Positions 16,488 through 52,645 of a DNA stretch of 64,000 nt are shown piece by piece. The translations under genes were made by a program, and so were the position numbers. Position 1 is the stretch's first letter, and each line of letters starts with the position of its first letter. The stretch comes from Lingula anatina (Eukaryota; Animalia; Brachiopoda): positions 3,534,001 to 3,598,000 of the forward strand of contig CM120643.1 of NCBI GenBank assembly GCA_051362555.1, given 5' to 3'. The notes beneath the pieces were generated by a model. That model had not been told where the DNA came from. It saw only the letters and a program-made list of their open reading frames with translations, and did not search any database.

Positions 16488-17935
16488 TTATGTTCGTGCC
16501 CTCCGTCTGAAGCAAGACGTGAACAGATTCAATACCCTCCTCCACCTAGATGGGCGGCTATTCTTTGGAGCTAAAATGTATAATACAATATTACTTACTA
16601 AGAGGCAAAAGTATAAAATGTTCAATAAGTCAGTGCAACATCATATTTCATGTATGAAGCTTCAATGAAACACTTTTACCAGTATTTGGAATAAACAAAA
16701 TTGCCAAGTATCATTTTAATCTGGCCAAAAGCACAAACTGTGTTGGCACAACATAAGGAGTGTGTGTGTGTTTGTGTGTGTGTGTGTGCGTGCGTGTACA
16801 TGCACAAGCACATTCCATCAGTGTAATAAATATTGACCCTACTATTCTATTGACCCAACTGTCTTACCTCTCTCCTTCACGTCTGCTTTCACAGTTGTTG
16901 TGTCATTGATACTGACTGAAGAAAAACAGGAAAACAAATTAAACATTTCATACCTGTGCACAACAAGAATTCAATACATTATTTAACATAGTCGAAAACC
17001 CATTCAAAGATTTAGATCACTGAACAGTGAATTTGAACTCAGTGTTTGTGCATGAGAGTCTCCCCCCTAAAGTCCATCTGTGTGTGTTTACATTTTTAAG
17101 TGTATTAAATGAATTCCCATTAAATTGTCCTAAACTTATTGTCTTACCTTTTTCTTTGATGCCCTCAGCATCTGACACACTCTTTGTGTCTTTGATATTG
17201 GCTAAAGAAAAAATGATATCAAATAAAAACTTAACATTCCATATCTGTGCATGTTCAGATAGGATTCAGTATTACAATTTATGGAAGACACATTCAAATA
17301 TTTAAATGACTTAAAAATAAATGATCTTCTTAAGTATGCTAAAGATTTTGCTGGAGCAACATGCTTGTGGTGTGTATGTGCGTGTATGTGTGTTTGTTAG
17401 AGTATGTGTGTGTGCATGCATGTTTCATAAGTATATTAAAAGTCATAACTATTTTACTGAGATTCCTGTCTTACCTATCTGCTTAATACTTAGGGTCTTT
17501 ACAAGTGTTACTTTGTTCTTGTCTTTCAGTATGGTATCAAGTGAAAGGACAGAATTGAATTTTCAAACAACACTATGGGTGTATTCCCAGAGATTTAGAT
17601 CAATCCAGGGATTAAAATTTAGATCAACCTAACTCCCTGGGGGTTCATGATAAATTGCAGTCAGACGAGCGTGCACCAAAGTTAATTAACCCCTTACAGC
17701 TTTTAGTAGGCGGGGCAGTCAGACGCTTAAGCCAGCCAAGCTGACAGTAATCTAGTGAGACTCCCCACAGGGATAGATCGATCTAAAAATCTATGGAAAT
17801 GGGGTGTATGTGTTCAATCTTTACACAGCAAAAGCATTAATTTTTCAGAAGATAAAGTATCTCCTTAAGTCTGTCAAAGGCCAGACTTTGCTTGTGCAAC
17901 ATGCATGCAAGTACAGTACCTTTTGGTGTGTGTGA

Positions 17936-17971
<36 letters not shown>

Positions 17972-19995
17972 ATGCACAATCACATGTCATCAGTGTCATA
18001 AATTGATACCTGTTCTATTGACCTATTCTATTCTATCTTACCTCTCTCCTTCACGAGCTCTGTCACAGTAGTTGTTGTGTCTTTGACATCAACTGAAGGA
18101 AAAAATGGAACACAAATTCAACATTCCATGCCCATGCACAACAAGGATTCAATACCATAGTCAAAGATGTATTCAAAGATTTAGATCACTGAACAGGGAA
18201 TAAAAACACAATGTTTGTAAGGGGCGGGTCTTGAGAGATTTTCTGACAGTCTTGCAAATTATATTTGTTGATCCATCCTCCATTGTGGACTGTCTTCTGA
18301 CAAAAAATTAAATCCCCATCAATGTAAACTTCTAACCATCTTGCGGAAGACCCAGAAGACAGCCTCAATTTGCCCCTGTTTGTGTCTGAAAGCCTGTTTG
18401 TGTGTGTGTAAATTTTTTAAGTGTGTTAAATGAACACCTGTTAAATTGACCTTACTGTCTTACCTCTCTCCTCGCTGCCCTCAGCATCTGACACACTCTT
18501 TGTGTCTTTGATATCAGCTAAAGAAAAAAATGATATTTTAATAATATTTTATAATTTAAAAATACAAACTTAACATTCCATATCTGTGCATGTTCAAAAA
18601 GGATTCAGTAGGCCCATTACACTTTGATGAAGACACATTCAAAGATTTAACTAACTTAAAAATAAATAAATTATCTTCATAAGTATGCTAAAAAATAGAC
18701 TTTGCATAAGCAACATGCTTGTGGTGTGTAAGTGCATGTGTATGTGTGTTTGTTAGTGTATGTGTGTGTGCAAGTATATTAAAATTCATAATGTTATTAT
18801 TGGACAAAGAAAAAGAGGAAGGCCAGTCAAACGATTGAATAAAGCAATGGTGTGGACTTACCACTTGTGTGGACTTCAGGCTTGTACATGTAGTCCCACT
18901 CTGGAATAAGATGGCACATTTATTTATTATTTACAAGTTATGATATACACTAAAATAAAGTCTTTAATGTATTTGACAATATTAAAGGACCATTTCATCA
19001 TTTTTCTACAGTTTTTTTTATAGGATAGTGAGATCAAGTAATCTTTTATTTCCAAATGTTGTACATGACAGATTTAAAAGGTTACGAGAATTACGAGTTC
19101 AAGCACCTTTTATTTCATGTCCAGTTCTCCCCAAGTACAGGTCACTTCCATGCTGTCCTTAGTGGTCACCTGGAGGCACCTGTTCCTAAAGGGTTCAGGC
19201 TCCCATGTCCAGCCAGACCCAGTGTGGTAAGGCTGAATAAATTTAAAGAATGAATGAATGAATGAAAAAACAAACAAATAAATAACTTAAAGATATGTTA
19301 ATGTCTAAACTGAAAAATAAAATGTTTACTAATATATGCAATCACTGATAAATCAAATACACTAGAAGAAAGGAATGAAAGTTTTAATAAGTACTTAAAT
19401 GTATCAGACTTTAAATTTTCTTTTTCAATTTTAAAGAAAATCATTTTTACCTGAGATCATTATTTTTGTAAAAAAAAAAAAAAGTCTCATACTTACATTT
19501 TGTGGCTTAATGAATTTCCATTCTATATTTGAGCCCTTGGGCAGGAGAAACTCTGCCCTGAGGGATGGGACCCCCATATCAGTGAACCTTGACAGGTTCA
19601 CACCTTTCTGGGGGTCCCATCCCCCGAGGGCAGTTCCCCTGCCCACCACTTTGGCCTTTAAATAGTTGTTTGTTAAGAAAACTCTTACAGTGGCCTTTGC
19701 TGTTCAAAGTAAAATAGAAAGAAATACTATCAATATATAGTTTTTGATATTAACATTACAGACATTCAAACTGATCACTTAATTAATGTAAATAAAGAAT
19801 AGGATATCTTACTTTCTTATTATGAACAAAATAAATTTTTTTTATCTATATAACAACAAAAAATTGCAAGAGTAGTTTTAGGCCTGTTGTACTATAAAAT
19901 ACATACAGTCTGATTATACAAACAGTGAAACACGCACACAACTTACGAGCACACTGTTCTTCTTTATTTATTTCATTTTCCATATCAGCTATCAT
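16488..19995 (-). CDS. CBM20 (starch/glycogen-binding domain) gene with micro-exon repeats, copy A; a frameshift ends the frame right after CBM20 (124 aa), so it is a truncated gene or a pseudogene
   Basis: Exons: 19995-19947 (MIADMENEINKEEQCA); 19699-19497 (PKATVRVFLTNNYLKAKVVGRGTALGGWDPQKGVNLSRFTDMGVPSLRAEFLLPKGSNIEWKFIKPQN); 19232-19107 (PYHTGSGWTWEPEPFRNRCLQVTTKDSMEVTCTWGELDMK*, TAA at 19110-19112). Phase-1 micro-exons follow at 18517-18464, 18092-18042, 17540-17475 (acceptor mutated), 17201-17148 and 16915-16868. Last exon 16570-16488 (APKNSRPSRWRRVLNLFTSCFRRRART*). GT-AG sites and phases are consistent. Confidence 0.8.
17577..17806. mobile_element. ~230-bp MITE in an intron of the CBM20 gene; same family as 34719-34933 in opposite orientation
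   Basis: Imperfect TIR tattcccagagattt / aaatctatggaaatg. The interior is a diverged reverse complement of 34719-34933. Confidence 0.75.
19107..19699 (-). CDS. CBM20 domain-coding exons (copy A)
   Basis: Motifs VVG...LGGWDPQKG, LP.G..IEWKF, WEP...NR and V...W match the CBM20 consensus (LGxWD, YK(F/Y), WE...NR). Confidence 0.85.
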
Positions 19996-20856
19996 CTGCA
20001 ATATAAATTAAAGTAAATTAAAGTAATTTAAATAATTTTTTATGTTGCTTTTTCCAGCAGGAGAATATTTGCTCATAAAGAAGTGAGAAGATAATCCCAG
20101 CCGCCCAAAGGTCTGAACGCGTTATTCCGTCTTAAACAAAGCAAGTCGACAAAGCAGGTAACTACTGGTACATTCTCAGCTCCCAATGGGTGCCTTTTTT
20201 ATGACAGCGGCTTGTACACATGTATCCTGTTTATTAAAGTTATCTGACAAGAAACAAGTGGTTTTTAAGAGAACTAACCCCGACCAGGAAAGAAAATGTA
20301 TATTTGCTAGGCACTGTCGACCTCCCTTGACTTCAATTTTCCTGATTGCAATTTCGATTACATACCGTCCTTGATATTATAATCTGAAATAAAATGCTCG
20401 CATAAAGTATTTGATTTTAAAAAGTTGATCTAAAGTGTTAGCATTCGGATTACAAAATTATTTAAGTGTGGATGCATTGGAATAAAGAAATTGGTAGAAT
20501 CATCCTCAAGAGGTTTTTAATAAGCACATGTAGCAATTAAATCCTGAATTTATATCACATACCTACAAAATACGCAAAATAATGTATAACTTAGAAAGTA
20601 AAAAACCGATCAAGATTATTATTAATATTATGTATTTCACTTTGTCAATTCCTTAGATATTATTATGAATTTAGTTTAATTTATTTCATTTTACATTTAA
20701 TTTCAGTGCCTCGTAACAACCGTCTACGATGAAATTGGACGCACTCCCAGCAAAGACATCAGATTCGTGAACGCCAGCGCCCGCACCCATGTCAACGTTG
20801 TCTTGCGTGTCGAAGTTTGTCGTATAGTTTTAACTTGCAGTTTAAGTTAAAACTTG

Positions 20857-21009
20857 CAGGGTTGACATTTGATTTGGTTGGAAATGTAATATTTGTTTTG
20901 GTTTGCAATATTCTGCATTAAAACATGTATCGAATGAAGTACAGCGTGCAACAAATGTTTTATTCATGAACCTTCTGATAAAAGGGACCAAATCCAAGCG
21001 TCAACCCTG
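20857..21009. mobile_element. ~150-bp inverted-repeat element (hAT-like CAGGGTTG ends)
   Basis: cagggttgacatttgatttggt ... accaaatccaagcgtcaaccctg. No target-site duplication is recognisable. Confidence 0.5.
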
Positions 21010-21610
21010 CACGTCGCTGGTTTATTATTATACATATGTAAATAAGTTGTAGTACAGCACTCTATCCGCACACGATGTTTTTATTGTGATTTAATTTTTT
21101 GTTCATACCCACCAGTTCTCGAACCGGAAACGACACTTTTTAAGTTATCTTAAAACAAAAATGTGCCTTGCTTAAGTGTTCTATGAAAATAAAATTAATA
21201 GTTGTAAAATTATCATAAAGTGATGTGCAGGTAGAGCACTGAGACAGTACGACCGGTTTAATGTTTGATTGTCAAATTTTGTGTGTGGGCAAATATGTAA
21301 TAAGATACGAAAATGCATGTTTATCCATATTAAATCGGTTACAAACATTGATTTTAATGAAGTTAGCTTTAGAAATAAATAGGTAGCAACTTCATTACGT
21401 AAAATGCCTACAGGAATTTTATTGTGGGTTCAATGGAAGAAATGAACGAGATGTAAATTTACAATAAACTGTAAACGCTGAAATCCAATTATGACACTTA
21501 AGAATTAACGGCAAAATGAAATTGTAAAAAGTGCTCAAGTTATTGCAGAATTGCCCACACGTATTAAAACGGTTCTTTCTAAAATTGTGAATATGCGGTT
21601 ATGGCGCATG

Positions 21611-22037
21611 GTAAGAATAAACTTCCTTTGGTTCCCGGTGTTTTGATATACTAGTAGTATGTCTGATCAGTGATAGACCCATAGTTTTATTGCGGGGAGG
21701 GGGTAGAAATGTTCGTTTTCAGAATATCAAACCACGGGTTGGGTTAGTTTTTTCTGCAATTAATAAGTTTTTGTTATTAAAGAAGGGAAATTAACATTAT
21801 ACCTTCCTTACAAAGCGTAAATACTCACAAAAGAAACTGTGATTAGTAGAAAGTGTTTCCTTTTGGGTCAATTGAAATGTACATGTAGAACTGGCATTTA
21901 TCGCATCTTTTACAAGTTGAAATTTTGAAAAATCCGAAACTTAAGTTATCGCAAAGCTCTGATTTGGGGGTAATGGGTATTTCCTAGTAATTAAAGAAAC
22001 TTGGTCAGTTAATCGCCTAAAAAAACTTTTTCTTTTG

Positions 22038-22082
<45 letters not shown>

Positions 22083-22701
22083 TCTAATCAAACATGAAAA
22101 AACAAAAAAAATATAAGAAAAAAGACACTTTGGTAAAAGTAGAAGATAATGTTATATAGAGATATTCACGGAAATATTAATGTTCGGAGCCGAGATTTAA
22201 TTACTGTACCCCGCAGGGACGACGTGTGGGGAGGTAAGAATAAACTTCCTTGGGTTCCCGGTATTTTGATATACTAGTAGTATGTCTGATCAGTGATAGA
22301 CCCATAGTTTTATTGCTGGGAGGGGGTAGAAATGTTCGTTTTCAGAAAATCAAGTCAGGGGTTGGGTTAGTTTTTTTGGCAATTAATAAGTTTTTGTTAT
22401 TAAAGAAGGGAAATTAACTTTATACCTTCATTACAAAGCGGAAATACTCACAAAGAGAAACTGTGATTAGCAGAAAGTGTTTCCTTATGCGTCAATTAAA
22501 ATGTACATGTAGAACTGGCATCTATCGAATCTTTTACAAGTTGAAATTTTGACAAATCTGAAACTAAAGTTGTCGCAAAGTTCTGATTTGGGGGAAATAG
22601 GTATTTCCTAGTAATTAAAGAAGCTTGGTCAGTTAATCGCCTAATTTTTTTTCTAATCAAACATGAAAAAACAAAAAAAAAAATTTAAAAAATGACACTT
22701 T
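21611..22701. repeat. Local tandem duplication, period ~623 bp
   Basis: gtaagaataaacttcctt... starts at 21611 and 22234. The units stay similar through to gacacttt. The first unit has an expanded poly-T at 22040-22081. Confidence 0.92.
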
Positions 22702-23930
22702 GATTGATTAGAGTAAAAGATTTCCACAAAATTGGAAGGTCAGTGTTTGACTTAATGTTGATCTTGTACTTGGTACTTTCTTAATTCTATATTTCGATCG
22801 GGATCAAGGAGTGATTGAGAACAAAAGGCCTGATTAGGTGCCAGTCCTGCACGTGCTGTTGGGTTATTTTTGCTGAGTGTTTCTGAATCACTGAACACAA
22901 GTGACCGTAGAGTTATTTTAAGTAAACTTGTTTTTGCACAACCTTTTTAATTTTGTTTACATAATATTGTTCTTAAAATGACTATTGACTGGGATAAGGT
23001 TGTAAACTGACCATGTCTTCATGCTGTTCTTGATTCGCACGGCGCATAAATTTGTTCCTATTTTAAGATTTAAAGAGAAGAAAAACATATTTATTTATCT
23101 ATGAGAAAGCATTCATTAAATTTACAGAACTGAATAATGTTTGACTGCTGTTTGGTGTTTTGTGTAATCATCAGCATGGGGACATACAGTTAGCTGTGGG
23201 GTCATGAGTGTGTTCCCGCGTGCGGGGAGAACGCTTACATGAGATCGTAATCATTCTGAATTTTCTATACTGTTACCACCCTTGAATTTGGATAAAAATG
23301 TCCCTCGGTGAAATATTGGATCAGTCACAAGACAAATACTCCAATTTCAACTTTGAACGATTGCTGTAAAATACATCGTCAAATCTTCAACTTTCTCTTT
23401 TAACTCTGGACAAAAACCTGAGAATTTCATGTTCTGGTCAGTATTATGTCGTCTTGTATGCAGTGTTCTTGAACACTTTAGAACCAAAATGATTGATCTT
23501 GAGCGACAATATTCAAAATGCATAGAATCTCCCACACATTTAGTTGTAGATAGTTGTATTTAAGATTAATTTATATCTCAAATTGCGCAGTCGTTATGAA
23601 AATTACTTTTTATGTAAAGCCAAAACGTAATGTTCGGATTTTGAATACATCTGTATGGTGTAGTTGTTTGTATTTGTTATAATGAATGTACATAAAAGTT
23701 GTAGTAGATGATGTGCAAAATGTCACATGTTTATTCTTGACTTTCTTTTCTTCAGCTCGACTTGAACCTTAGGTTTTCAACTCCTAGCTCACCCTTTTCT
23801 ACTTCTTAGTCTGTCGCCTTACCTACTGAGCCACCGTCTCAGTTCGCGTTTTTCCTCATTCGTATGATCCTCTTATAGTAGTTTGAATTGTTTATTTGGG
23901 TTTATTTTTGCAAAAGGTAATTTGCTGGGA

Positions 23931-24000: not shown

Positions 24001-26681
24001 TGTTCCCACCCACCCTCCCCGTGTAGACTTTCTTCTTATAGTAAGCAAAGAAAAATTCTAATAGCACCCCTTTGTAATTCCAAAGTGCCCGAGCCAGAAA
24101 TCGAACCCCAACCCCAGGCTTTCACTGAGCCATGTAGCCATCAGTAAAACACTAAGACATTTTGTATATTCAATAAGTGTTTTATTAAGAGCAATACAAA
24201 TTGCTTTTATGTATTCAAATATTTATGAAACATATATCTGTAAAATATCATCGTCTTCAGTCTTTTTATTACGACAAGTTAAAAAGCGTTTAGTATTTAA
24301 AAGAATATCATGATATTATAGTATAATATTATGATGTCTGCATTTAAATTCACTTGCAGGTGTAAAAAATATATTCGACTTGACAAATAAACTATTTACC
24401 ACACTAATGGTCTTATGTTTGTTCTTAATGACAAAAACAAAATATTTCAACTTCTTCAATAAAAAAAAACACAGTGGTGGATCTAGTCTCCGCCCTCCCC
24501 GAGGAGAGAGACCCATTCTGGACTCGCATGATCAAGTTCTCAAAATACTCCATCTCGCTCCAAATGTCAACATCTGACCCCTTTAAAATGTCCTGCATCT
24601 GCCATTGTGTTTTTTTTTCTATATAATAATGACAATTATGAGATTTTTATTAAATGCTCTGTTTAAAATTGCACGCTTTTTTCAGTCAAACTCTTATTGT
24701 TGGGAGCTTAAAAACGGATACGCACTCTCGTTATGTTTGGCAAAAAAAATGTCAAAAGTCCTACATAAAAAATATATATATACAACGTTTATACTAACAG
24801 CTATTGACAAACTGGAAAGACTAATGAACATTAGATAGAAAATGAATATGAAATAAAAAAAATTCCTTGCAAAAACTACTTAGAGAACAAACTACATGTT
24901 CACTTATGAAATTTGGGTTAAAATCCAATGGACAGATCACGGTATTTCTCATATTTCCTATAGTCTACTACATCCATTTTCAATTAGAAAACAAACTACA
25001 TTTACATAAAATCTGGGTTAAAATCCAAGGGACAGATCACGATTTTTCTCATATTTCCTACATCTATCTTCAATTCGAAAAAAACCCTTCTGAACATAAA
25101 TTCGAATATACATCAATAATTTCTGCTTCATCTGGTCGATAGAATGATGCTGTTAAGACAGAATTGCCGAAAACAGTTAAATTTGGAAAATAAAGCAATT
25201 TTCATTCCCATAAATGTATTTGTTCAACAGATTAATGGCAAAAACATATATTTCAGGATAAAACGTGTACATATTTTACATTGTACGGACTACGTTCAGA
25301 GATAAGTAAAACACGAAAATAGTGTCTTTTCCATCATATGATGGTATTTACATGTACGAAATCAGCTTTTCAAGAAGGGATTTTTCTCAAATAGAAATGA
25401 AATTTCTTAATTCTACATACTTCACCTGAGACACAAAATAATCTATCTTGATTCGTAAAATGGCATCTCTTACTCAACAAGACAGCAAATACTCAAATTT
25501 CAAGAGACGATAATCCTTTTTTCCCTTCTGAACATTGAAAGAAAGACACACAATGAGCGTAAGTCGTCTCATTTTTGATTTCAGTACATTTGGAGAATGA
25601 GACCGAAGTTTACTAAAAATAGAAATTAAGAAGTAGACACCGGACTTGTAGAATTTATAAATGGATTCGATAATGTGTTCATTGGTGATTTAGGTGAAAT
25701 TGTTGAATATTACAAAAAAATATTTGGCTTTAAACCGACATAAAATTTGTGTATTTTTGCGTACTTTATTCCCATTCAAACTAGAAAGTCGCTCCCTGCT
25801 GTCTTGCTGAAGAATACCACATGTACTACCATTTCACAAATGTCACGTGTGACAATCTTGACACTACGATAGTATACAACATACATCAATACAATAAAGC
25901 AAGTTTTTAACTGATGACCATGCTTTCTGATATATCATTACGTTTTAAATATGTTACATTTAATTCGTAAAAGACTTCAAATTCGTGATGTTATACTAAG
26001 AAAAAACACGTAAAAGACAGACACCTTTGGACAAAGCCTTTCCAAATGAGCATTTCGCCCCTTATGTCTTGAAAGATTGATCTTATAATATGTCACGCAG
26101 AAATCAATACAACTTCAATTTAGCTCTCACATTTTAATGAAATGAAATCTTATATATTAATTTATGAAATCTTGCCAATATTCGAAATGGAAGTATTGCT
26201 GTATACTGCTATAACTCCTTAATACTTGAATTATGTTCTTTACTTCGGAAATGGACGTTTGTTACTATACTTTGATCAAAGTCTATAATTCCACTACCAA
26301 CCGCTCACTACCGGGTACGTGTAAATATCAATATGTCAATAGCCAGACTCTCACAAGTCATTTCACAGCATTTTCCCCTCCTTGGCCATTTCTCACGCTA
26401 AACTTCGACTGCCACGACTATTTCTACCGACGAAGTTCAAAATACTGAACATGAAGTGCAAATGCATTTTCCTTTGTTTTATGAGACGTGATGAGATGAA
26501 GTGAAGGAGGAAATAAATGGTACGTGGGGAAAATGTTGGGAAATGTTCAAAACCACTTTTAAGCAAACGGGCGTCAAAAAACTTTTCAAAAATAAATCAC
26601 AATTAAATAATCACCATATACCTAACATTGATTTCTTCAAACATTATTCTGATATGGCTGAAATTACGATATTCGTATACT

Positions 26682-27022
26682 CAGGGGGTGGAAACGCGCT
26701 ACTTATATGATTATGACGAGCCTAACCGTCAGCACCGGATATTAGTTTGTGACCTTGAGGGGCTATTAGGCTTGGTCTTTGCGGCACGCACGAACAGTAG
26801 TCGATCTACCACACCTGGGTCTTTTGTTTTTGACAACTGTTCACTCGTCAAGGAGGTGCTTGTTCAAGACTACAGACTGATATCTACTAGTACTACCAGT
26901 GGCTTCATTAGTAACGTTCCCACAATACATGGTTTTCTGTCTGTGCGTACATACCCTGAATTTGGTTAGCCTCACTGACGAGAACAATGGACGTTTCTTA
27001 CCCCTCTCTAGGATTACCCCTG
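26682..27022. mobile_element. hAT-like non-autonomous element (341 bp), copy B only
   Basis: Ends cagggg / cccctg, flanked by a direct repeat gtatact. Copy A has the empty site ttcgtatacttaat at ~2880. Confidence 0.8.
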
Positions 27023-29052
27023 GTATACTTAATATCTAAGCCGCCTTCGGTCCACTTCCTGATCACTCAGCACTGAGGCAGTGACGTCTCCTTCCAGGCT
27101 GTCCATCCCATTACATTCATGGTAGGGGGAGGTGGCAGGCTGAAGTGACCGCCTTTCCTTTTCAACTCTCACCAATATTTTACGGATGGAACTTCATTTG
27201 TACTTTACAACATTAAAAATACATTGGACAACGTTTGTGTTCAGTATATTTTAAAAAATGCCAGACGAAAATAACTTCAGATCCCTATCAACCCCAAATT
27301 GAAACGACATTATGTGGGTCACTGGCTTTCTTGATATGACTAAATATGGTTCACTGATTTGAATATCTGAGCAGTTTTTGCTATGTTTGACCAAATAGAC
27401 CTTACGATAGAGACTGCAGTGTTTTGATTCTGATGCTGTCTCAACCATGATTGTGACGGATTCCACAAAATATCATCTCATTGTGTTAGTGAAGACATAA
27501 CGCGAGGCGGAAAGGGGGGGATAAAAAGTTCATAAAGAAATTACCTAGTAAGCTATTGAAAATGACAATATGATATTTTAGTTTAAATTAGATGTCGACG
27601 AACCATTCAGTAGAGATAGTTGGATTAAAAAGAAATATGTTGAAATAAAACGGCACAAATATTATGGGGGGAGGGTATGATGATTTTTTTTTTTTTCTTT
27701 TTTTTTTTTATTGCAATAGAAAAAAAGCAAGTACATAAATTTGAGGGTATGATGATGGTATAAAAGGTTTGGGAGAGTCGGGGAAATTGAGTTTTGAGTG
27801 CGTTCGGGTGTTTACCGGTGTCCTTTAACTTTAACACACCAGGTTATACAAACTTTTACAACTTTTGTCTCTAAAAAAACATGTTCAAATTTATATTTTT
27901 CTACTTATATAACTACCGTATTTTTCAACTATAATAATTCACAAAGGTGGACTTCGAATTCCAAGATGACGTCTATTGAGAAAGAGCGCCATTACTAAAA
28001 ACGCAGCACTAGAAAATTAACTGGCAAAGCGTCAACGCTACGAAAGGAACTAAAATTGAAATAAGTTCCAGCAAATGTTATGCTGACGTTATGCGAGAAA
28101 ATCATCGTGACGTTATAATTTAGCGCTGATTTACTCTATCAAATTCTTCCTCTGAAATGTTGCCCCAATGACTAAAAATGAAGCTTACATACTCGTCATC
28201 TCTTGAAATTGAAATTTCAAAAAATTAAAAGAGAAAGAAATTATCGACATTTTTCATTTAAATTAGCGTTTTTACACACAACGAACACGACGCAACGTAA
28301 TGGCGCGTGAAAAAACGACTTAAAATCCCTACGCCGTGACAGTATGTGTCCTACTGTCAGTTACAGATGGAACATTAAGTGCCGACAGAATTTACATGAA
28401 GTCAAAGTTTGCTATTTTTGAACTACACAAAATGTCGGCGATTATCACATCAAGTATGTTTGCCGACTTGCACGAAATATTGCACATTTTCATATATGCA
28501 CTGGGGCCTATTTGTGCAATTATCCAGAAAAACATCAGAAAACATAAGACAGAAGTGCTAATGAATGAGATTTAGTGCTTTTGCTGAACTGTCCCCATAG
28601 GCAATGGGCTAAACAAGACTAGTACAATTTGCGGTTTGAAGGACAAAATGATAGTTTGTTTTTTAAATTCAAAAAATGATTTTTTTTTCGAAGTGAGATA
28701 TTTGGGACTTCATAAAGAAATCTCAACAATATTTCAAAAAATGTCCCAGTAACAAAGCTAGGCTAACGACGTGAGTGTCACCTCTACCTGAGGTGTGCAA
28801 AAAGCTGAATCCCGATGAGAGCCACCTAACGGAGACTGAAATATCGGAGCTAAAAAATGACTTGTTTTAATTATTGATTAAAACAGGCTGTTAGTATGAC
28901 TAAGTTGTAAAACAGCCGATGGATTTCTTGGAACATTGAATGACTTGAATTGGAATATAATAAAGTTCTTAATTGCAAATTTGTTCTACTATAGCAAACT
29001 GCTAACAACACATTTCTAACCGAGGCGTTGCTTTCCTAAGCATAAAAATTAG

Positions 29053-29087
<35 letters not shown>

Positions 29088-32000
29088 GGAGTTGGGGACG
29101 TAGGTCGTGCGCGGGAATCTTCCTCTCTGGCAATTGTCATTGTTGACAGGTATGTAATGGTCGGGGAGAATAGAGGAAGTTGAGTTACAACAAGGTTAAT
29201 GCTACAGTATTTGACCTCAGAAACTTTCTCAACATGATTGTGACGTTGTCCATGAATTTCATCATATTGTGCTAGTGAAGACAGTGATAAATGATAGAGG
29301 ACGCTGATATGATCATTTTTCTTATAATATCTTCGGAGTCTCATAATAATTTTTAAAAATACTCGGAACTTTTTGTACTGAATTCACTTATTTCAAAAGT
29401 TTCCAAATGTCATGAATTTCATTTATATGAAAAAAGAGAACCATGTAACAGTGGTAACCGTACTTGAGGCCCCTGCAGGCGATGTATGTTTTTTCTCTGG
29501 GAATCCACGTCGAGACGTTGTCCAGGATCGAGAAGCTATCTCTATCTAAGAAGCTAATTCCTTGTAAAATTTTACCAATATATAGTAACACGCTTTATAT
29601 TAATGAACATGGGCCTATTTGATCAATACTTTCATCAAGCTTTATTATTTTCTTAAAAATTCCAGTCCTGGGGGAATCTGTCCAGTGCGGACGGCTCCTA
29701 CAATTTCTTTGTAGAATAAAAGAACTCTAACATCTCGTGATTGATAGATATCAATCAAAGCTGTCAAATTTGACAGTTTGAGTAAACATACGTCAATCAC
29801 ATCCATACCGCCAAAGAACTTTTATCTCCTGTGATTGATAGGTGTCAATCAAAGCTGTCAAATTTGACAGCTTGATTGACGGTTAGTTAAGCAAACGTCA
29901 ATCACAATCATCCTGCAAAGGAGCTTTTACTTCCTGTGATTTAGAGGTGCCAATCAAAGCCATTAAAAGTGGATGGCTTGATTGGCAGTTATATAAACAA
30001 ACGTCAATCATCATACTGGTGATCAAGTATAGCTGTCGAACAATGAAAACGCCGTAGAGAGCGGACTGTCCCCAGGATTATTTAAATAAGTAAATTAAAA
30101 TTAGGCGTCATTAATGAGTAAATACAGTGTATAGGCATGTGCAAAAAACAGATATCTTTTACAGTTTAGGGTGCCTGTGTTTAAATTAAAAAGTCTCGGT
30201 CTTACATTTCTATACAAGCAGGCATTTTTAGTTATGTTAAAAATAAGTCCAAGCTACGCTTGCGGTTGGAGATTGTCGGCAGGAGGACTGTTCAGTTTAG
30301 ATGTTTAGAAGATTGGGAGCAAAGGAAAGAATTTGAAATCCAAAAGAAATTGCAAGTCTGTTCTGCGCCAGTATAGCTCTGTAGTCCCACCTTGCTGAGG
30401 GACACATTTTACTTTGTATTGGAGACTCCAAAGGCTATCCTTCAGTTACACGTACACATCAACTCTATGGCATGGAGTGTGTTGACCCGGATTGAAAGAA
30501 AAAGGGAATAGGGCACAGGATAATTACCCACAAGAGGAAAATAGATAAAATAATAAATAAATACACGATAATAAATTAAGTTTGCAGTTATACATATGTT
30601 AACTCCCAGGTCAAAATAGATAATAATTACAAATATTAAAAGCTTTATTAAAGATACTGTATTAGCCGTTTTTATACACACATTAGTTTTCTGTGACAAT
30701 ATTCAATGGTTTCGTTTGGTGTGTCATTTCAGCTTTGACTCTGTAGTTGCTTCCAGTAAAAAAACATACTCAGTTTCTACTCTATATTCGCATATTAGTA
30801 CAACACAAATTCATGTTCGCGATAAATGTCTTCATGTCTACCTTTTTTTAATCATCAGCCTGCTATGCAAATAACGAAATTCAGAGAAAGCAGACGCGTT
30901 CATTATGAGTATCTCCATTCTTATGATTTCGGTTTAGAGATATTCTGTAAGTTATCATTCTTGCATAAGAAAGCACTCTTTCAGTCTGACCTTAAAAGTT
31001 TCCAAAACAAATAAATAAATAAATAGAATAAAAGTAATTTCCAGCGCCCTGATTACATCACACATACCTAACACCGTATTTATTTATTTCTATATGATAA
31101 GGATAGTAGGCTGAGAAAAATGTTTGCAGGGGCGGGGGGGGGGGGGTGTGGATAGGAGCTTATCCCCCCCCCCCCTTTACCCCGCCCTTACATTTTCAGC
31201 CACGTCAGTTCTTAGCGGAGAAGAGGATGATGGGCCCTGTTCATTTCTTTACCACTTTACATATTTATAAACGAGTACTTGATATATTGCATCGAGGGCC
31301 GATACCCCAGTCAGTAGATGGCCAACTTCAAGTGAGTGATTTTTTCGCTGCCCCCAACCCCTTCTCCTACTCGGCGATTCAATGTTTGCACTGATGTCAT
31401 ATTTGCCTGCAGCTTGACAGACGAGACACTTACTTGGCATGGAACACCCCCTGACGTATTTTACTGATAAGGTTGGACCTAGAGGAGTGGTCAGGGACCC
31501 ATTACAGAGAACGACTTCTCACTGTACTTGTTCATCCCCTAGCTTCAGGTTAAACATACCATATCTCATAACATTGGTTTATAGTCATGTTATTCAATTG
31601 ATGATTTTATTCTTACAAAATCATTTGAATGTGGACAGAAATTTTGCTATTTTACAGAAAGAGCTTAAATTGTTATTATGGAGACGATGTGGTAAGTTTG
31701 CTTGTAAATGAAATGAGCAAGAAGATTATGTAGACTTCATTGCGGCAGTTGCCCCTCTTCCCAAAGTTTGGCTTCATGAATATTTGAAGACAATGCACAA
31801 AATGATGATTTAGACTAAAACGAATGACGGGAAAAAGACAACAATAAGCAGAAATTTCGGTATCTTTTATTATTACTTTTGGTGTTGGTGTTTTATTGTA
31901 GAAAAACAATCATAATTATTTGTTTCTTTTTGTGTTAACTTTTTTTGCGTAGTATTCTACTAGTTTTTTTTTTTTTTTCCGAAAATTCATGATAAAACCA

Positions 32001-32138
32001 TGCTAACATTTTTTACAGGGCTATCACAAAGTACACATAGACAGAAAATCTTATAAAATAAAAGTCATCAAGGGGTGTTTCGTCAAGGCTTACGTGTAGC
32101 CGAAATATCGAAAAGACCTTCTTCTTCCTCTACATGTA

Positions 32139-33631
32139 AAGCTGTTTTGTTGCTTCGTGGACTATAAACAATGTTTCGATACTATAGATAGAGCCAAGCT
32201 ATGGCATAAGTTAGCCAAGTTAGGAACCGGTGGCAAATGTCTCTCTGTTATTAAGTCCTTGTATAATAATATCAAAACTGGTATTTTGTTAAATGGAAAG
32301 ATCTCAGATTTTTTCAAAAATAACAATGGAGTTCTTCAGGGAGAGGTTTTGTCCCCGATTCTGTTTTCCCTTTTTGTCAATGACTGTGAATTAGAATTTC
32401 TAAAAAGTGATACCCAGCCAGTTATGATGAATGATTTGTCACTTTTTCTACTCATGTATGCGGACGACATGGTTTTATTCGCTGATTCTGATGAGGGGCT
32501 ACAGAGTATGTTGAACTCCCTATCAACATATACTGATAAATGGTCTTTAACTGTAAATGTTAGAAAAACAAAAATACTGGTATTTAGAAAAGGTGGTGCT
32601 TTAAAAACTGATGAAGTATGGCTATATAAGGGTCACAAACTGGAAGCAGTTAATGAATTCTGTTACCTGGGTGTCACAATGAATTACAATGGTAAATATT
32701 ATAAAACCCAGAAACAACTTGCATTACAATGTCGCAAAGCCATGTTCAGTTTGTTTAGAAAGTGTAGTGATATGAGCTTGAACCATACTACCGCTTTATC
32801 TTTGTTTGACACTTATATATCTAGTATCGCTAATTATGGATGTGAAATATGGGGTCACCATCCTGCCCCTGATATTGAAAATGTGCATTTGGACTTTGGG
32901 AAATTTATTTTGGGGGTTAAACGTTCAACCCCTGACTCAATGATTTATGCAGAGTTAGGAAGATTCCCTTTGGTAACCAATAGGAAATTAAAAATGGTTA
33001 AATACTGGCTTAAACTGAGAAACACAAATAATTGCATTCTAAAAGAATGCCTTAAATATTTTGAGTATGAATTCCGGACTAAACCATCCTGTGGCAATTG
33101 GCTCTCTAAGATTCATGATGTTTTTACAGAAACTGGTCTCAATGATTTTTTTCACTATCCAAGTAATTATGATGAAAAATTTATTGTACCTCTAGTATAT
33201 CAAAAACTAATGGATATTAAACAACAAGCTATATTGTCAGAGATTAACGATTCTAGAAAGTGCTGGCTCTATAGACATGTCATCGACCGTGTTACTATTC
33301 AAACTTATCTTACAAAATCAATCCCGCTCCAGTTTAAGAAAATGATTAGTAAAATAAGATTATCATCCCATAAACTTGCAATTGAAACGGGCAGATACAG
33401 TAAAATCCCTATTTCACAAAGAAAATGTTCCTACTGCAATGATGTGGAGGACGAATTCCACTTTATACTGGGTTGCTCTAGTATTTAGATTTAAGAAAAA
33501 GGTTCATCAAACCTTTCTACTGCAATAGACCCTCGGTGTTCAAATTGGTTCTCCTGCTGAATTCTTCCAGAAAGAAAGTATTATGTAACCTGGCACGATA
33601 TCTTAGCCAAGCAGGAAGGCTTCGGCAATGA
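32139..33631 (+). pseudogene. LINE ORF2 fragment: reverse transcriptase plus C-terminal CCHC zinc finger
   Basis: RT motifs FVDYKQCFD, GVLQGEVLSPILF, YADD and YLG, then C-x2-C...H...C (RKCSYCNDVEDEFHFILGC). The tracked ORF 32157-33488 ends by a frameshift. The shifted frame continues YLDLRKRFIKPFYCNRPSVFKLVLLLNS...RLRQ* to 33631. Confidence 0.95.
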
Positions 33632-33929
33632 GATCTAATCTAATTTGATCTAATTTGATCCAATTTGATCTCATTTGATTCAATTTGATCTCATTTGATT
33701 CAATTTGATTTAATTTGATTTATTTAAGTAGTTTATTTATTTAAGTACTCATGTATTTAATTTATTACAGGTACTATTATTATTGTTATGATGATTATGA
33801 TTGCGATTATTTCTATTATAATTATTCTTTGTAATAACCCTATAGTTGTTGTAACTATATAGTCGTTGTAACATTTGTACCAGTACTAGACTGATGGTCC
33901 TCAAGAGACCAAGGTAATAAATAAATGAA
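32139..33929 (+). mobile_element. 5'-truncated non-LTR retrotransposon (LINE), copy B only
   Basis: Inserted at tacatgta|gattacc, which is uninterrupted in copy A at ~12800. It begins inside the RT domain. The 3' UTR has a 10-bp tandem repeat (33632-33725), a short stem-loop ggtc-ctcaaga-gacc and an aataaataaatgaa tail. No clear TSD. Confidence 0.95.
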
Positions 33930-34718
33930 GATTACCTGTATCTAGACAAGCACATGTACACCTGTATTTGAATAAGTACACATATTCTTTACATCAGCGA
34001 GTTTCCTAGACAGAGAAATTTAAGTAGTGGCAGCTGCAGACAGGTTTATAAAGTATATCTATGTATGGAATATGATATTTGTTAGTTTGATCATAGACAA
34101 CGCAATAACTTGACTTTGTTCAAAAAAATTAAGTAGGTAAAAAATCCAAATGCTGTGAGAAACGACTCAAGACTTTACTTGTTGCTTATATTAAACTTTA
34201 TTTACAACAAACAGGCCTGTTTTCCGCACTTAAACAGTAGGAAAAGACTAAAAAACACATTTTGACACAATCCAACAATTTAATTGTCTAATAAAAAATG
34301 TAATTTTGACACAAGTCAAGGCGGTTTTAAGTTTGAGCGTAATTTACTTGTGTATCACGAACATAATTAAAAAGCGCGTAATAGGATGGTTAGCAATTTA
34401 TACAATTGTAAGATGTCTTAAAGTTTCCCCGTGAACCATCACGACGAGAGACCAAGAAGATTTTAAACTTTGAAATCTTTTTACTTCTGAATATTTTGAC
34501 TTTTATGCCTAGTTTTCGCTTAAAAAAAGAGAAAGAAAATATCCCAATAAAAGTCACCCTAGTCGAACCAGATAAATAGAAGTGCAGTCAAAATCCTAAT
34601 GGAAGACTTAGACACGTACGCATATTTTTACATCATGCGATTTTCACCCAAAAGCTGGGACGAATGCAGTGCATCTCTGAGGCGCGTTTACTATCTATTT
34701 TTCACTTGTGGAATGATT

Positions 34719-34933
34719 GGCTCTATTCCCATAGATTTTAGATCGATCTATCCCCGCGGGGAATCTCACTAGATTACTTTCAGATAATCCGACTTAAATG
34801 TCCGTCCCGCCTACTACAAGCTGTAAGAGGGTAATTAACTTTCGTGTCCGCCCGGCTGACAGCTATTTAGCGTGAACCCCCAGAGAGTTAGGTCGATCTT
34901 AAGTAGGTCGATCTAATCTATGGAAATGGGGTG
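34719..34933. mobile_element. ~215-bp MITE, copy B only
   Basis: TIR tattcccatagatt / aatctatggaaatg with a short duplication of (tg)attg. Copy A has the empty site ggaatgattgtgttag at ~13595. Confidence 0.85.
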
Positions 34934-36036
34934 ATTGTGTTAGTGCAGAAAATTTCTTTCACACCAGATGACAAGTGAAAACTTTAATAAGATTTGTTAA
35001 GCATCATTAATTATCATTAAGATCATCATCATTACAAATCTCTGATATGAGCATCACTTCCGGTCAGTCATATATTACTTCAGGAGACCTTATTTGCATA
35101 TAAGAGAAAAAATGATTTTTGTCTGATTTTGGCTTGTTTCCAATTTTTTCATTACTTTCAAAAAGTAATGTCCCCTTAGGCTCACAAATCGGAACACTTT
35201 TGAGTCATATGCACTGATTGTAAATTGTGTAATTAGAATTTTTTTTAATATCACAGACGTGTATCACGTTTTCACTCCACAGCCATAAAACTCATTGATA
35301 GCTGCATGGGTATAAAAGTAGGTCAATTGCCTGTATAAAATTACGATTATTGAATTTTTAGTCTGGACCGTTTTAGGGGGGAGACAGAAGTGGAAAATGT
35401 ATCAAGATGCCAGCAAAATATTTTGGATGCACGGGGCTACTGAAAAACAAAGTATGTTGCAAAATTTTACAGAAAAGAGTAAAACTAGTCCATATCTCCA
35501 GATTCACCATGTAGAACTTTATAGATGCCAAGGTCCCTCTCTATTTCATCTGACTCTCCCTAAAATGTTTTAGACCGCGTTAACTGTGGTGGCAGACGCT
35601 GATGCTCTGAAGACGACTCATTGCATTCACACAAGGGGGTAAAGGTTTTCTAATGAAATGCTGTATTTTATTACATATGACGAATTGCGTGATAAAGGAA
35701 GGAAAATTGGCTTTTTTAAAATTTATGTTGACTAAGTGTAATACAAGACACTGATATTTCTTCTCATAATTGACAGAATAAAGAAACGCAGAAGGACATA
35801 ACCTATCTCCCCTTACATGGCATATCCTATCTGTGAACTTGATCTACTTTAGCATTCACTCCTACAAACGCTGTGTGGTATCAGTAGAAAGGGGGCGTAT
35901 TTTTTTTTTTGGGGGGGGGAATAATTTTACTACAGCGTTATGTTTTTACTCATATTTTACTCATTTTATATATTATATAATAAAACATTTTTTAAAGAAA
36001 TTCATAGACCTGAATTAAGAGCGTTGGCGACGGTTT

Positions 36037-36207
36037 TGTATCCAAGCCCACAGCTGTTAATTATGCTGGTCTGCACATTCCGTACTTTATTACAATTTTG
36101 ATCTGATTTGTTTCTTTGATGATGATTTAGCTAGGACAACAGTTTACCGACGCACAACTTTAAGCATTGGATTTGCCGCCCGCCCCCCCATCCCCTTCGT
36201 GCCTGGC

Positions 36208-36246
<39 letters not shown>

Positions 36247-36377
36247 GTGCGGGCACACTCACGTGCGTTGTATAGAAAAATAATTCTAACATTTTTCCTC
36301 TCTCTTTGTTTTAGTAAGTCTTTCGATGAACACGAAAATCGAGTCAACACCTGTGCTTATCATACTTAATGGGTACA
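36037..36377. mobile_element. ~340-bp insertion with short IR and (TG)n, copy B only
   Basis: Absent in copy A (gtttttgggacgag at ~14735). Ends are tgtatcca / tgggtaca. Confidence 0.55.
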
Positions 36378-37092
36378 ATTGGGACGAGAAAAGTAAAGAG
36401 ATGTAGCTACTCCGAGCACATATTTTTAAGCGTAAGTTGTGTGTGTAAAAGAGAGAAAAAAATATCGTATCGTAACCGCAAATATTTCACAGCGTAGTGG
36501 ATGTAAAAGAGAGAAAAAAATCGTACCGCAGCAGGGTGTTGTAAAAGATTTTAAATCCTTTAATCATTTTGAAAAATGACAGAAAAGGAATTGTGTTAAA
36601 AAAAGAACCTGTCGCCGCTATTTACAGCACCTTTTTTTATGATAATACATGTAACATGGCTATAGCAATAGTACAAGTAAGATAAGATAAAGTAAGAATT
36701 TATTCAGCCTATAAAAATATTTAAATATAAATATCGGCAATCGTTATCCTTTGAGAGATAAAACTAAGATAAAACACTGGACAATAAAAAAATTATGAAC
36801 TAGGCCTAAAAGTGGAATTAATAAGATTTAAAAAAACTTCTTAAAACCGTTACTGCCCTTAAAAGTCGGAAGTCTACTATTGCTGGATAAAAATTTGAAA
36901 AGAGAACATCCTGGGTGGGTGGGATCCCCATAATTCATTTTGTTGTTTTCTCCATTCTGTCTTTAGTGATACCATCCAGTTGGGGGAGATCTCTTCCAAT
37001 TATTTTACTGGTAATGTTAATAACGTTGGGGTGTTTTCCCCGTTCCTCCACTGTAGCCACCAGATGCATTAAATGTTAAATACTCTCAATAT

Positions 37093-37211
37093 AGAAGTAT
37101 ATATATTGAAGCTCGGATTGCATTTAACAACTATAAAGTAGATCTTTCAAGGTTCATCAATATATATATATACTCCTATTTTTATCAATATCTATACGGT
37201 GGATCAACATG
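37093..37211. other. 119-bp insertion flanked by a 14-bp direct duplication, inside the Rex1-like fragment of copy B
   Basis: aatactctcaatat occurs at 37079-37092 and 37212-37225. It is single-copy in copy A (~15337). Confidence 0.75.
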
Positions 37212-38333
37212 AATACTCTCAATATTACACGTATAAAAGTTAATTAAAACGGGCTCATTATCTGTAAAAGTTGCAAGTGATCTAGAAAGCCGTTGTCGTC
37301 TAAAGCAATACTTCACTTTTAATGTGAAGTCCTAGAAGTTTGAACTATATATCTATTGTATATAAACATGAACATAATTGAATATTAATGCAAAACTGAA
37401 GTTGTCAGTAATTGAGCCGTGAAATGTCCATATAATTTAGCGTGATCTGTGAAGCACCTCATTCCCGTGGCTCGTAAATGCGGCTTTTTATTCTTTGTCC
37501 TTCGTGAAACAAAGCCTTATACCCGGCAATTCGTTACCCGCTACTAGGGCCGCAGTTATTATTGTCGACTTTTTTGCTGACTGAGAGCCAAAATGACTGT
37601 CTATATTTATCTAGAGACATATCTGTGAATATCTGTGGAAAATCTATCTGTTGCCCTGGTAGAGGGTAGAAATTCTCAGGATTTGCAGGATTCAATTCTC
37701 AGATAATTTTCAGGATTTTCAACTGGTATTGTCAGTGTTATATGCATAAAGTTTTGTTTCCTGTGATTTGTAAATTAATGATTTTCTTTCCCATGAACTA
37801 TGATCACCCCTCCCTAATGGTACCCTCAATTAAGAAAAGAAAGAAAAACAAAACTCATTTGATTACAAAAAATTAATATATTATCATAAAATTAAGAGAA
37901 TGACATTTTGCAGTTTTTAACTGGCTTCTTCAGAGGCAATGATAGTTCTGCACTGACGACCCTGAAAAATAAAAGATGAAAATATTACAATGTAATTCAG
38001 TTAAAATGTGTATTCATTTAGGTGTAATTGGATGTTGACAGTAACTCTACAACAACCAGCTCCTGGCTGCTATTATATAATTACTGCTTTCATGTACAGT
38101 TTTACCAGCTGTTTGACATAATTTTCCTCTAAAAAAACTGAAAGCTTACTTAGTTATGATACCATCAAAACAAAGAGACAAACAAAAAGAACTTCTCTGT
38201 AAATGTATAATTAATGTATTCTTTTAAAAATACTGTTGACTTTTCTTCATTTCTTAATGTCTGAAGAGTTAAGAATTTAATTAATAATAATAACAACAAC
38301 AACAACAACAAAAACAATAATAATAATAACCAT

Positions 38334-38629
38334 TTATGTCCTTGGCCTGCGTCTGAAGCAAGACGTGAACAGATTCAATAGCCTCCTCCACCTAGATTGG
38401 CGGCGATTCTTTGGAGCTGAAATGTATAATACAATATTCCTTACTAAGAATATATAAGAATATAATGTTCAATAAATAGTCAATGCAATATCATATTTCG
38501 TGTATGAAGCTCAAATGAACACTTTTACCAGTATTTGGAATAAACAAAATTGCCAAGTATCATTTTAAACTTGCCAAAAGCACAAACTGTGTTGGCACAA
38601 CATAAGGAGAGAGAGAGAGAGAGAGAGAG

Positions 38630-38660
<31 letters not shown>

Positions 38661-39399
38661 ACATGCACAATCACATTCCATCAGTGTAATAAATAGACCC
38701 CTATTCTATTGACCCTACTGTCTTACCTCTCTCCTTCACATCCACTGTCACAGGTTTTGTGTCTTTGATATTGACTGAAGAAAGACAGGAAAACAAATGA
38801 AACATTTCATACCTGTGCACAACAAGAATTCAATACATTACTTTACAAAGACATCGATTCATTCAAAGATTTAGATCACTGAACAGAGAATTTAAACTCA
38901 GTGTTTGTGCATGAAAGTCTCCCCCCTAAAGTCCATCTGTGTGTGTTTACATTTTTAAGTGTGTTAAATGAATTCCCATTAAATTGTCCTAAGCTTATTG
39001 CCTTACCTTTTTCTTTGATGCCCTCAGCATCTGACACACTCTTTGTGTCTTTGATATTGGCTAAAGAAAAAATGATATCAAATAAAAACTAAACATTCCA
39101 TATCTGTGCATGTTCAAATAGGATTCAGTATTACAATTTATGGAAGACACATTCAAATCTTTAAATGACTTAAAAATAAATCATCTTCTTAAGTATGCTA
39201 AAGACTTTGCTTGAGCAGCATGCTTGTGGTGTGTATGTGCATACGTATGTGTGTTTGTTAGTGTATGTGTGTGTGCATGCATGTTTCATAAGTATATTAA
39301 AAGTCATAACTATTTTACTGAGATTCCTGTCTTACCTATCTCCTCAATACTTAGGGTCTTTACAAGTGTTACATTGTTTTTGTCTTTCAGTTTGGTATC

Positions 39400-39439
<40 letters not shown>

Positions 39440-42148: not shown

Positions 42149-42199
42149 CTGCAATATGTACAATAAATAAATGAAATCATGTTAAACAAGATACAAATC

Positions 42200-51300: not shown

Positions 51301-52645
51301 TTTTAAGTCATGGGATTTGCCAGTCTTTTCAATATAAATTTCAGTTTTCCCCAAATACGTTGTCCCAGAAAACACTTTTCATTAGATACAGTCAACCGAT
51401 CATCTAATCACAGATTTTTATTGTTGTTAAGCATCATTTGTACAAATTTCAGAAACACTGTACAAGATTTGACAAAATTTTTAACGTTTAACTATTTTCA
51501 GTCGTGGGATTTGTCAGTCTTTTCAATGTAAATTTCAGTTTCCCCAAATATATTGTCTCTAAAAGACACTTTTCAATAGACATAGTCAACTGATCAGCTT
51601 ATCACAGATTTTTATTGTTGTTAAGCATCATTTGTACAAATTTCAGAAATATTGGACTAGATTTGACAAAATTATTATCGTTTAACTATTTTAAGTCATG
51701 AGATTTGTCAGTCTTTTCATTGTAAATTTCAGTTTTTTCAGTTGTATTGTTCTTTTTCCAGAGTACCCTTACCATTAAAAGGCAGGCAGTGAAAGACAGC
51801 ATCAAGAGCAGCAATATGTCTTATCCATGTGTACAATACATGATATGTAACAAGATTTAGGACATTGTCAAATATTGTGATAACAACAACCCATTCCAGA
51901 AACCCATTGTAAGGAGTAATCTGCTTCTGGCATTGATAGTAAGGAGAAGTCTTGTATGGGTATATATCGTTTTCCAGATAACAGTTACAGGTAATTTGCA
52001 ACCTCTTACACACACAACCTCAAGTCATCACATTTGCTATTTTATTTTATATTCACATTGCAAAATTATAAACATTTAACTATTTTAAGCCATGGAATTT
52101 GGCAGTGTTTTCAGTGTAATTTTCAGTTTTTTCAAAGATATTGTCGCAAGAAGATACTTTTTATTAGACACAGTCATTTGATCAGCTTATCACAGATTTT
52201 TATTGTTGTAAAGCATCATTAGTACAAATTTCAGAAACACTGTACAAGATTTGACAAAATTATTAACGTTTCACCATTTTAAGTCATGGATTTGCCAGTC
52301 TTTTCAATGTAAATTTCAGTTTTAAACATTTTTTCATTAGATACAGTCAACAGATCATCTAATCACAGATTTTTATTGTTGTTAAGCATCATTTGTACAA
52401 ATTTCAGAAACACTGTACAAGATTTGACAAAATTATTAACGTTTCACTATTTTCAGTCGTGGGATTTGTCAGTCTTTTCAGTCTAAATTTCAGTTTCCCC
52501 AAATATATTGTCTCTAAAAGACACTTTTCAATAGACACAGTCAACTGATCAGCTTTTTCACAGATTTTTATTGTTGTTAAGCATCATTTGAACAAATTTC
52601 AGAAATATTGGACAAGATTTGACAAAATTATTAACGTTTAACTAT
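45320..52645. repeat. ~194-bp satellite with higher-order repeat, left part
   Basis: The anchor cacagattttt recurs at 46547, 46739, 46933, 47127, 47321, 47907, 48100, 48294 and onward. The ~300-bp non-satellite block occurs 6 times. Monomers degenerate toward the left edge. Confidence 0.97.

Follow-up and report, generated by a model that had tools for sequence, protein, structure and literature searches.

A 64,000-nucleotide stretch of the genome of the brachiopod Lingula anatina (GCA_051362555.1, contig CM120643.1, positions 3,534,001 to 3,598,000; termed the window here, with all positions counted from its first base) holds on its minus strand two broken copies of a gene. We read the intact members of this gene family as non-catalytic glycogen-to-membrane adaptors that combine an N-terminal CBM20 domain with a basic amphipathic helix, and give this reading slightly better than even odds (about 0.52). 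The gene at positions 16488–19995 (copy 1) is real, yet the copy standing there is not intact. The adaptor reading builds on the exon chain, the CBM20 fold, the residues of sugar-binding site 1, the lesions of both copies, an intact relative in RefSeq, the one-faced hydrophobicity of the tail and low expression of the family in one RNA run.

Exon structure, relatives and the CBM20 domain

Copy 1 consists of ten minus-strand exons, running from 19995 down to 16488 in a window whose DNA is AT-rich and of animal type, and encodes in order a leader, the CBM20 domain, six in-phase micro-exons that form a spacer, and a basic tail bearing a Cys residue. An initial annotation, made from the letters alone, had proposed this chain, and it is borne out by GT at 9/9 donors and AG at 9/10 acceptors. 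The first exon, e1 (19947–19995), supplies an acidic leader with 11/16 residues identical to the RefSeq protein XP_023933041 (P0002), the relative used for all exon identities given here; since e1 starts directly behind an AG acceptor, an upstream exon is expected. The domain is divided between e2 (19497–19699; 47/67 identical residues), which encodes its first two thirds, and e3 (19107–19232; 36/39), which encodes its end and measures 126 nt against 127 nt in copy 2. The spacer is made up of e4 (18862–18900; 39 nt, 8/12), A1 (18464–18517; 54 nt), B1 (18042–18092; 51 nt), C1 (17475–17540; 66 nt), A2 (17148–17201; 54 nt) and B2 (16868–16915; 48 nt), every length being a multiple of 3 within a single open phase. 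It is followed by the last coding exon (16488–16570; 21/26), which encodes the basic amphipathic helix with its Cys and then a stop codon. The exception among the acceptors belongs to C1, which reads CAC there and for that reason is likely skipped in copy 1.

For the four distinct spacer unit types, shuffling gives a probability of 0.011 for the open frame and of about 1.4e-4 when the lengths are included, both being rough values, as exons and frame were picked after looking. A self-comparison of the window showed that A2 and B2 repeat A1 and B1 jointly with their flanking introns, suggesting that the spacer grew by local duplication.

The relatives are five L. anatina RefSeq proteins, labelled P0001–P0004 and P0009, all of them computational models and all called uncharacterized (XP_023933041 (LOC106177204), XP_023932861, XP_023930636, LOC106180838 and XP_013391095). 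P0002 (257 aa) holds leader, CBM20, spacer and tail in one model that is open from start to stop, and the exon-by-exon layout is shared with the window at 64–92% identity per exon group. This single model also places the CBM20 exons and the micro-exon and tail exons in one gene, as the initial annotation had supposed. The protein of ~265 aa that it had assembled, a composite of the two copies, is not encoded at 16488–19995, but the same layout recurs in P0002. The window copies differ from P0002 in being broken, in their set of spacer units and in the absence of a Tyr from the spacer word YATV. Of the other models, P0009 (121 aa) begins at the end of e3 and carries spacer and tail, and P0001 and P0003 end early, in sequence matching intron read-through. 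P0001, P0002, P0003 and P0009 all continue beyond the e3 donor, earlier called weak. P0004 (XP_013391095; 136 aa, 44% identity) is a distant paralogue, mostly CBM20, whose domain scores 21.3 bits against a cut-off of 23.3. The only Pfam domain in P0001–P0003 is CBM_20 (PF00686), with neither a phosphatase nor a GDPD domain and with low-complexity spacer for the rest, in keeping with the non-catalytic protein first proposed. Protein searches returned the five L. anatina proteins together with three distant CBM20 proteins, of which one is algal, one actinomycete and one from an unnamed record, the longer-protein search being weak, with 24 candidates only; in the searches made, the family appears restricted to Lingula.

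The domain assignment, too, is upheld. Exon e2 alone matches Pfam CBM_20 (PF00686) with 31.4 bits (E = 1.7e-7, cut-off 23.3), and P0001 reaches 33.3 bits. An AlphaFold model of P0001, based on an eight-row alignment, has a predicted local distance difference test score (pLDDT) of 79–92 per block over residues 21–130 and folds as a beta-sandwich of immunoglobulin-like type matching solved CBM20 domains, including those of glucoamylase (2vn4, Z 12.7), human GPCPD1 (2z0b, Z 12.4) and human STBD1 (8x8k, Z 12.1, root-mean-square deviation 2.0, 93 aligned). An Atlas model of P0002 residues 25–140 likewise resembles CBM20 clusters in 10/10 rows, with template modelling (TM) scores of 0.75–0.84. Human STBD1 was found by the fold search and was not listed in PDB sequence searches at E up to 1 or 5.

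Aligned to Aspergillus glucoamylase (1ac0, E = 0.0044), P0001 retains the Trp of LGxW, the K, the W-E pair and the N-R pair and has Leu for the middle Trp, in agreement with the initial annotation. The residues equivalent to site 1 (W, K, W and N) show no variation in 8/8 rows of the relatives' alignment and are present in the window exons. In human STBD1, according to the available part of the structural study, W293, K322, W334 and N339 of site 1 contact the sugar, and site 2 includes R333 and W355 (PMC11406230). When motif positions are mapped onto that account, site 1 and the last Trp are retained in the Lingula proteins, and Thr or Ile stands in place of R333. Site 2 is described there as variable among CBM20 domains, so that it is not needed for membership (PMC11406230), and one-site sugar binding is likely for the Lingula domain, judging by these residues.

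The gene family is expressed, at a low level, in one RNA run (X12), in which first-mate-plus reads fall in every exon-bearing bin of copy 1; this is the orientation expected of minus-strand mRNA in most stranded libraries. If placed on exons, the reads amount to depths of 8.9x in e1, 4.2x in e2, 16.4–18.7x in e3, 19.2x in A2, 10.7x in B2 and 3.4x in the last exon. At position 19223, 14 reads were counted, in agreement with the depth estimate for e3, and because 14/14 differ from copy 1, it is expression of the family that follows, and expression of copy 1 is not implied. By depth arithmetic, the bin past the e3 donor is too shallow for read-through, which lends indirect support to splicing; the junctions rest on the RefSeq models and this arithmetic.

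The tail and the adaptor reading

The tail reads as first given and is predicted to be a strongly amphipathic helix that grips membranes. Over its best 18 residues the hydrophobic moment is 0.60–0.63 (p = 0.012–0.013 in 5000 shuffles, 3/3 tails), its net charge is +9 to +10, and a HeliQuest-type discriminant comes to 2.55–2.57. The best 11-residue amphipathic window of the whole of P0002 falls in the tail, where W240, L243, F244, F247, C250 and F251 lie on one helix face, so that Cys250 is on the hydrophobic side. The core W-R-R-x-x-N-L-F-T-S-C-F-R is identical in 4/4 tails, those of the two window copies, P0002 and P0009. A CaaX box and a peroxisomal targeting signal of type 1 (PTS1) were considered and rejected on reading the last residues. 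The spacer that connects this tail to the CBM20 domain has 93 residues in P0002, with a net charge of −6, and is rich in D, E, K, T and V. At the end of the domain itself, W-G-E-L or W-E-E-L was rejected as an Atg8-interacting motif (AIM), its Trp being the last conserved Trp of CBM20.

For the intact members we infer glycogen binding, membrane binding, palmitoylation and a part in glycophagy, in four steps. First, the CBM20 domain would bind alpha-glucan via the site-1 residues W, K, W and N. Such binding would probably be weaker than that of two-site domains, because other residues stand in for the fungal site-2 Trp and for the site-2 Arg of STBD1. Second, the spacer of 90–110 residues, with its Asp, Glu, Lys, Thr and Val, would serve as a flexible leash whose length may shift by in-phase duplication or loss of micro-exons. 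Third, the tail would lie lengthwise on an anionic bilayer, its W, L, F, F, C and F residues inserted into it and its Arg residues at the head groups, and its Cys may be palmitoylated. Fourth, and with the least support, glycogen might be delivered to autophagic membranes in the manner of yeast Atg45 and oyster STBD1alpha. By analogy, a tether of this kind is plausible, with an experimental precedent in Atg45 (PMC11145338).

A number of observations weigh against the adaptor reading. In the tail region, conservation against P0002 is not significantly better than in the spacer (p = 0.16 and 0.09), and three of the five RefSeq models (P0001, P0003 and P0004) stop without a tail. Basic amphipathic helices, moreover, bind calmodulin, nucleic acids and import receptors as well as membranes. 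The AlphaFold model of full-length P0002 (four-row alignment) has a pLDDT of 34.5, the confident fold model being that of P0001, a tail-less relative. A canonical AIM is absent from the spacer exons scanned in the window copies (13/13), and site 2 of the domain is degenerate, both the fungal-type middle Trp and the STBD1 Arg having been replaced. No other animal, and hence no mollusc or vertebrate STBD1, was among the protein-search matches, and by fold STBD1, GPCPD1 and glucoamylase score within 1 Z of one another; these two results leave the family without demonstrated orthology to the tested STBD1 proteins. Finally, the RNA signal is low, being present in 1/3 RNA runs with zero or near-zero counts in the exon bins of X15 and X18, and no intron of the gene is among the 15 read joints listed out of 75, with no junction read seen directly.

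The first alternative, which we regard as unlikely, is an ordinary soluble STBD1alpha glycophagy receptor that holds glycogen with its CBM20 and an Atg8 protein with a spacer motif, its tail being incidental or protein-binding. The available text of Ren et al. (PMC12913940) speaks for it, as three L. anatina STBD1alpha genes are counted there, P0001, P0002 and P0003 are aligned, and an oyster STBD1 without a hydrophobic anchor is said to bind glycogen in the free state. An AIM-like word, YATV, is also present in three RefSeq models (P0002, P0003 and P0009). This word is at chance level, however, arising in 51% of shuffles, and is missing from the spacer exons of the window copies, where its Tyr is lost. 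The tail is more amphipathic than its composition alone would give (p about 0.012), and 4/4 cases have an identical core, which argues against an incidental role.

Quite improbable, in our judgement, is a tail helix that binds calmodulin or nucleic acids or serves nuclear import, with the protein linking glycogen to a partner in signalling or to the nucleus and not to a bilayer. The helix is indeed Trp-anchored, basic and amphipathic, and hydrophobic residues at positions 1, 5, 8 and 12 resemble calmodulin targets, as clusters of Arg resemble import signals. But the tail stands at the extreme C-terminus and has a Cys on its hydrophobic face beside basic residues, an arrangement that fits lipidated membrane anchors, and its discriminant of 2.55–2.57 also speaks for a membrane.

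In its strongest form, the adaptor reading would have Lingula build its own Atg45-style glycophagy receptor out of a CBM20 non-orthologous to STBD1, a duplicating micro-exon leash and a palmitoylated amphipathic helix, which we consider doubtful. If true, this would be a third, convergent route from glycogen to membranes, after the transmembrane helix of STBD1 and the CBM48-plus-helix design of yeast, and, among the searches made, the first animal glycogen receptor of peripheral-membrane type. The family bears on how invertebrates deliver glycogen to autophagic or other membranes: oyster STBD1alpha lacks the vertebrate anchor (PMC12913940), and the authors of the Atg45 study suggest, in the part available, that Atg45-like soluble receptors may exist in animals (PMC11145338). 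The 'STBD1alpha' class, set mostly by domain order, may contain proteins with differing anchors and origins. The weight of the finding is limited by the facts that the N-terminal CBM20 class is published, that an intact relative is in RefSeq, that Lingula alone yielded members of the family, and that both window copies are broken.

Lesions and fate of the two copies

Bases 1–20035 of the window are tandemly duplicated at 24102–42189 with 79–92% identity, and each unit of ~20 kb carries one copy of the gene. Copy 2, likewise on the minus strand, is made up of e1 (42100–42148), e2 (41252–41453), e3 (40835–40961; 127 nt, open through its donor), the spacer micro-exons e4, C0, A1, B1, C1, A2 and B2 (38727–40645) and a last coding exon with the amphipathic tail as in copy 1 (38334–38416; 22/26 residues identical to P0002). 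The additional C-type exon, C0, is 59 nt long as bounded here, a length not divisible by 3. Two RefSeq relatives have an upstream coding exon, and this finds a match beside copy 2 only (e0; matched part 42706–42729, with a phase-0 GT donor and 7/8 residues identical to P0002 residues 5–12) and none beside copy 1 within the 4 kb available. Another candidate upstream exon of copy 2, at 42401–42437 on the minus strand, has an AG acceptor, an ATG followed by five codons and a phase-0 GTGAGT donor, and is in frame with e1 of copy 2; it is supported by no relative.

Neither copy is intact as assembled, and the initial annotation was mistaken in treating the locus itself as encoding the tether. In copy 1, e3 falls one base short of its copy-2 counterpart, which brings a TAA (19112–19110) into frame so that the reading frame ends after 124 residues. 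Copy 2 is broken twice inside the CBM20 domain, where e2 contains a TGA (41361–41359) and is one base short, shifting the frame. The two copies share 92.4% identity in exons and 93.2% in introns, and the ratio of non-synonymous to synonymous differences per site (pN/pS) between them is 1.34 for the spacer, against 0.37 for CBM20, 0.43 for the tail and 0.27 for the leader. With 13 non-synonymous among 23 changes, the CBM20 domain departs from neutrality at p = 0.018, and leader, CBM20 and tail combined at p = 0.004. On this comparison, CBM20 and tail were under purifying selection during part of the time since the duplication, with a drifting spacer. Both copies in the window probably arose as duplicates of a paralogue that is expressed, and are now decaying.

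Two other accounts of the locus have to be weighed. In the first, which has a small share of the probability, copy 1 is intact in the animal, the absent base is an assembly error, and the locus makes the full protein by skipping C1. The lesion is a single base in a short run, a frequent kind of long-read error, and with C1 skipped no other frame break is left in copy 1. Moreover, the longer, open form of e3 at 19115 was recovered from DNA run X1 as one contig, with a depth of 2258 of 3586. At 19223, however, both X1 contigs are unlike copy 1, so that the contigs over e3 may come from other paralogues; copy 1, moreover, carries a dead acceptor and lacks an upstream exon in the 4 kb available, and the adjoining copy 2 is broken twice. 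This account concerns the locus only and is compatible with the adaptor reading of the family.

In the second account, copy 1 would be a working gene for a CBM20-only protein of 124 residues, its downstream exons having become non-coding. We consider this very improbable, although the stop lies just past the last CBM20 Trp and leaves the domain whole, and although P0004 is modelled as barely more than a CBM20 domain (136 aa). The X12 reads at 19223, all 14 unlike copy 1, point to transcripts from another copy or allele, the depth in bin 18908–19191 is consistent with reads ending at the donor, and the upstream exon is missing. The stop also lies six or more junctions before the end, and stops far upstream of the last junction are decay targets in animals with junction-dependent nonsense-mediated decay. 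Decay of duplicated copies is the most likely reading for the locus.

Several further features of the window were noted. An open frame of 462 codons at 32100–33488 (plus strand) contains a reverse transcriptase domain (RVT_1, E = 3.9e-25) in a stretch that is found only in the second duplication unit, and is taken as a long interspersed nuclear element (LINE)-type insertion; a Pfam search of 55 open frames of the window beyond those of the gene gave this reverse transcriptase as its sole match above cut-off. An intron of copy 1 holds a short high-copy element with inverted ends (17618–17800), which resembles a miniature inverted-repeat transposable element (MITE), has an inverted copy at 34725–34902 and is very deep in DNA and RNA runs. 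Between the gene copies, at 20044–23735, lie X12 reads of plus-strand orientation with a depth of up to 73, head-to-head with copy 1 where an upstream exon would be expected. Open frames of at least 62 codons in this region have no Pfam match, and the reads differ from the window and may derive from a related locus. The region contains a 412-bp direct repeat (21610–22020 and 22233–22644) and a run of 41 T bases. Beyond the duplication, a 62-bp tandem repeat (43958–44299; 5.5 copies, 94% identity) is followed by a 194-bp satellite that has higher-order periods and forms two arrays (45635–52646 and 57308–64000); between these stand two arrays of a 164-bp repeat, inverted relative to each other (52668–53603 against 57275–56339).

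Comparison with known glycogen-binding proteins

An N-terminal, non-catalytic CBM20 had been thought a new layout among animals, but the STBD1alpha proteins of lophotrochozoans already show it. In the available part of their paper, Ren et al. (2026; PMC12913940) attribute three 'STBD1alpha' genes with a single N-terminal CBM20 to L. anatina and align five L. anatina sequences, including P0001, P0002 and P0003, which, going by the count, are most likely these three genes; P0004 is not one of the five. The oyster protein of this class (LOC105333128) binds both glycogen and GABARAPL2, and is described as having no hydrophobic anchor (PMC12913940). We accordingly file the Lingula family with STBD1alpha, by domain order. 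It shares with that class the single N-terminal CBM20, the lack of a catalytic domain, the site-1 residues W, K, W and N and a lophotrochozoan host, and differs in its replaced site-2 Arg and in its C-terminal amphipathic Cys tail, which is not described in the available text of PMC12913940. The reverse layout proposed at the outset was therefore already described, which partly refutes the initial annotation on its own terms. We found no description of an amphipathic Cys tail in the literature, and the gene and protein identifiers were found in no main text, although they do occur in a supplement of PMC12913940. Nor was a main text found that links Lingula to CBM20 or L. anatina to glycogen or starch binding, or that joins Atg45, STBD1 and invertebrate glycophagy.

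Vertebrate STBD1 (STBD1beta, genethonin-1) is similar to the Lingula proteins in its CBM20 fold, in site 1 and in the idea of glycogen held at a membrane. As described in the available text (PMC11406230), it also has the opposite domain order, an N-terminal transmembrane helix, a W-x-x-V LC3-interacting region (LIR) and, with R333, a second site for sugar; the Lingula proteins have none of these. Laforin and GPCPD1 have an N-terminal CBM20 with site 1 only, as in Lingula, but unlike the Lingula proteins both carry a catalytic domain.

The closest parallel in the order of parts is yeast Atg45, which, in the available text of PMC11145338, has an N-terminal glycogen-binding half, an AIM (YVNL) and a C-terminal amphipathic helix that alone brings green fluorescent protein (GFP) to membranes and is required for full glycophagy. 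Sugar-binding domain, spacer and C-terminal amphipathic helix follow each other in the same way in Lingula, where the helix is a computed one. The sugar-binding domains differ, Lingula having a CBM20 and Atg45 a CBM48-like domain; the AIM of Atg45 is proven, and neither a Cys nor a polybasic cluster is described for it in the part of PMC11145338 available. Atg45 was confined to Saccharomycetaceae and Candida in its authors' BLAST search (PMC11145338). Atg45 is thus an analogue of the Lingula family, not a homologue, and the prediction is that intact family members would work like it, holding glycogen at one end and a membrane at the other.

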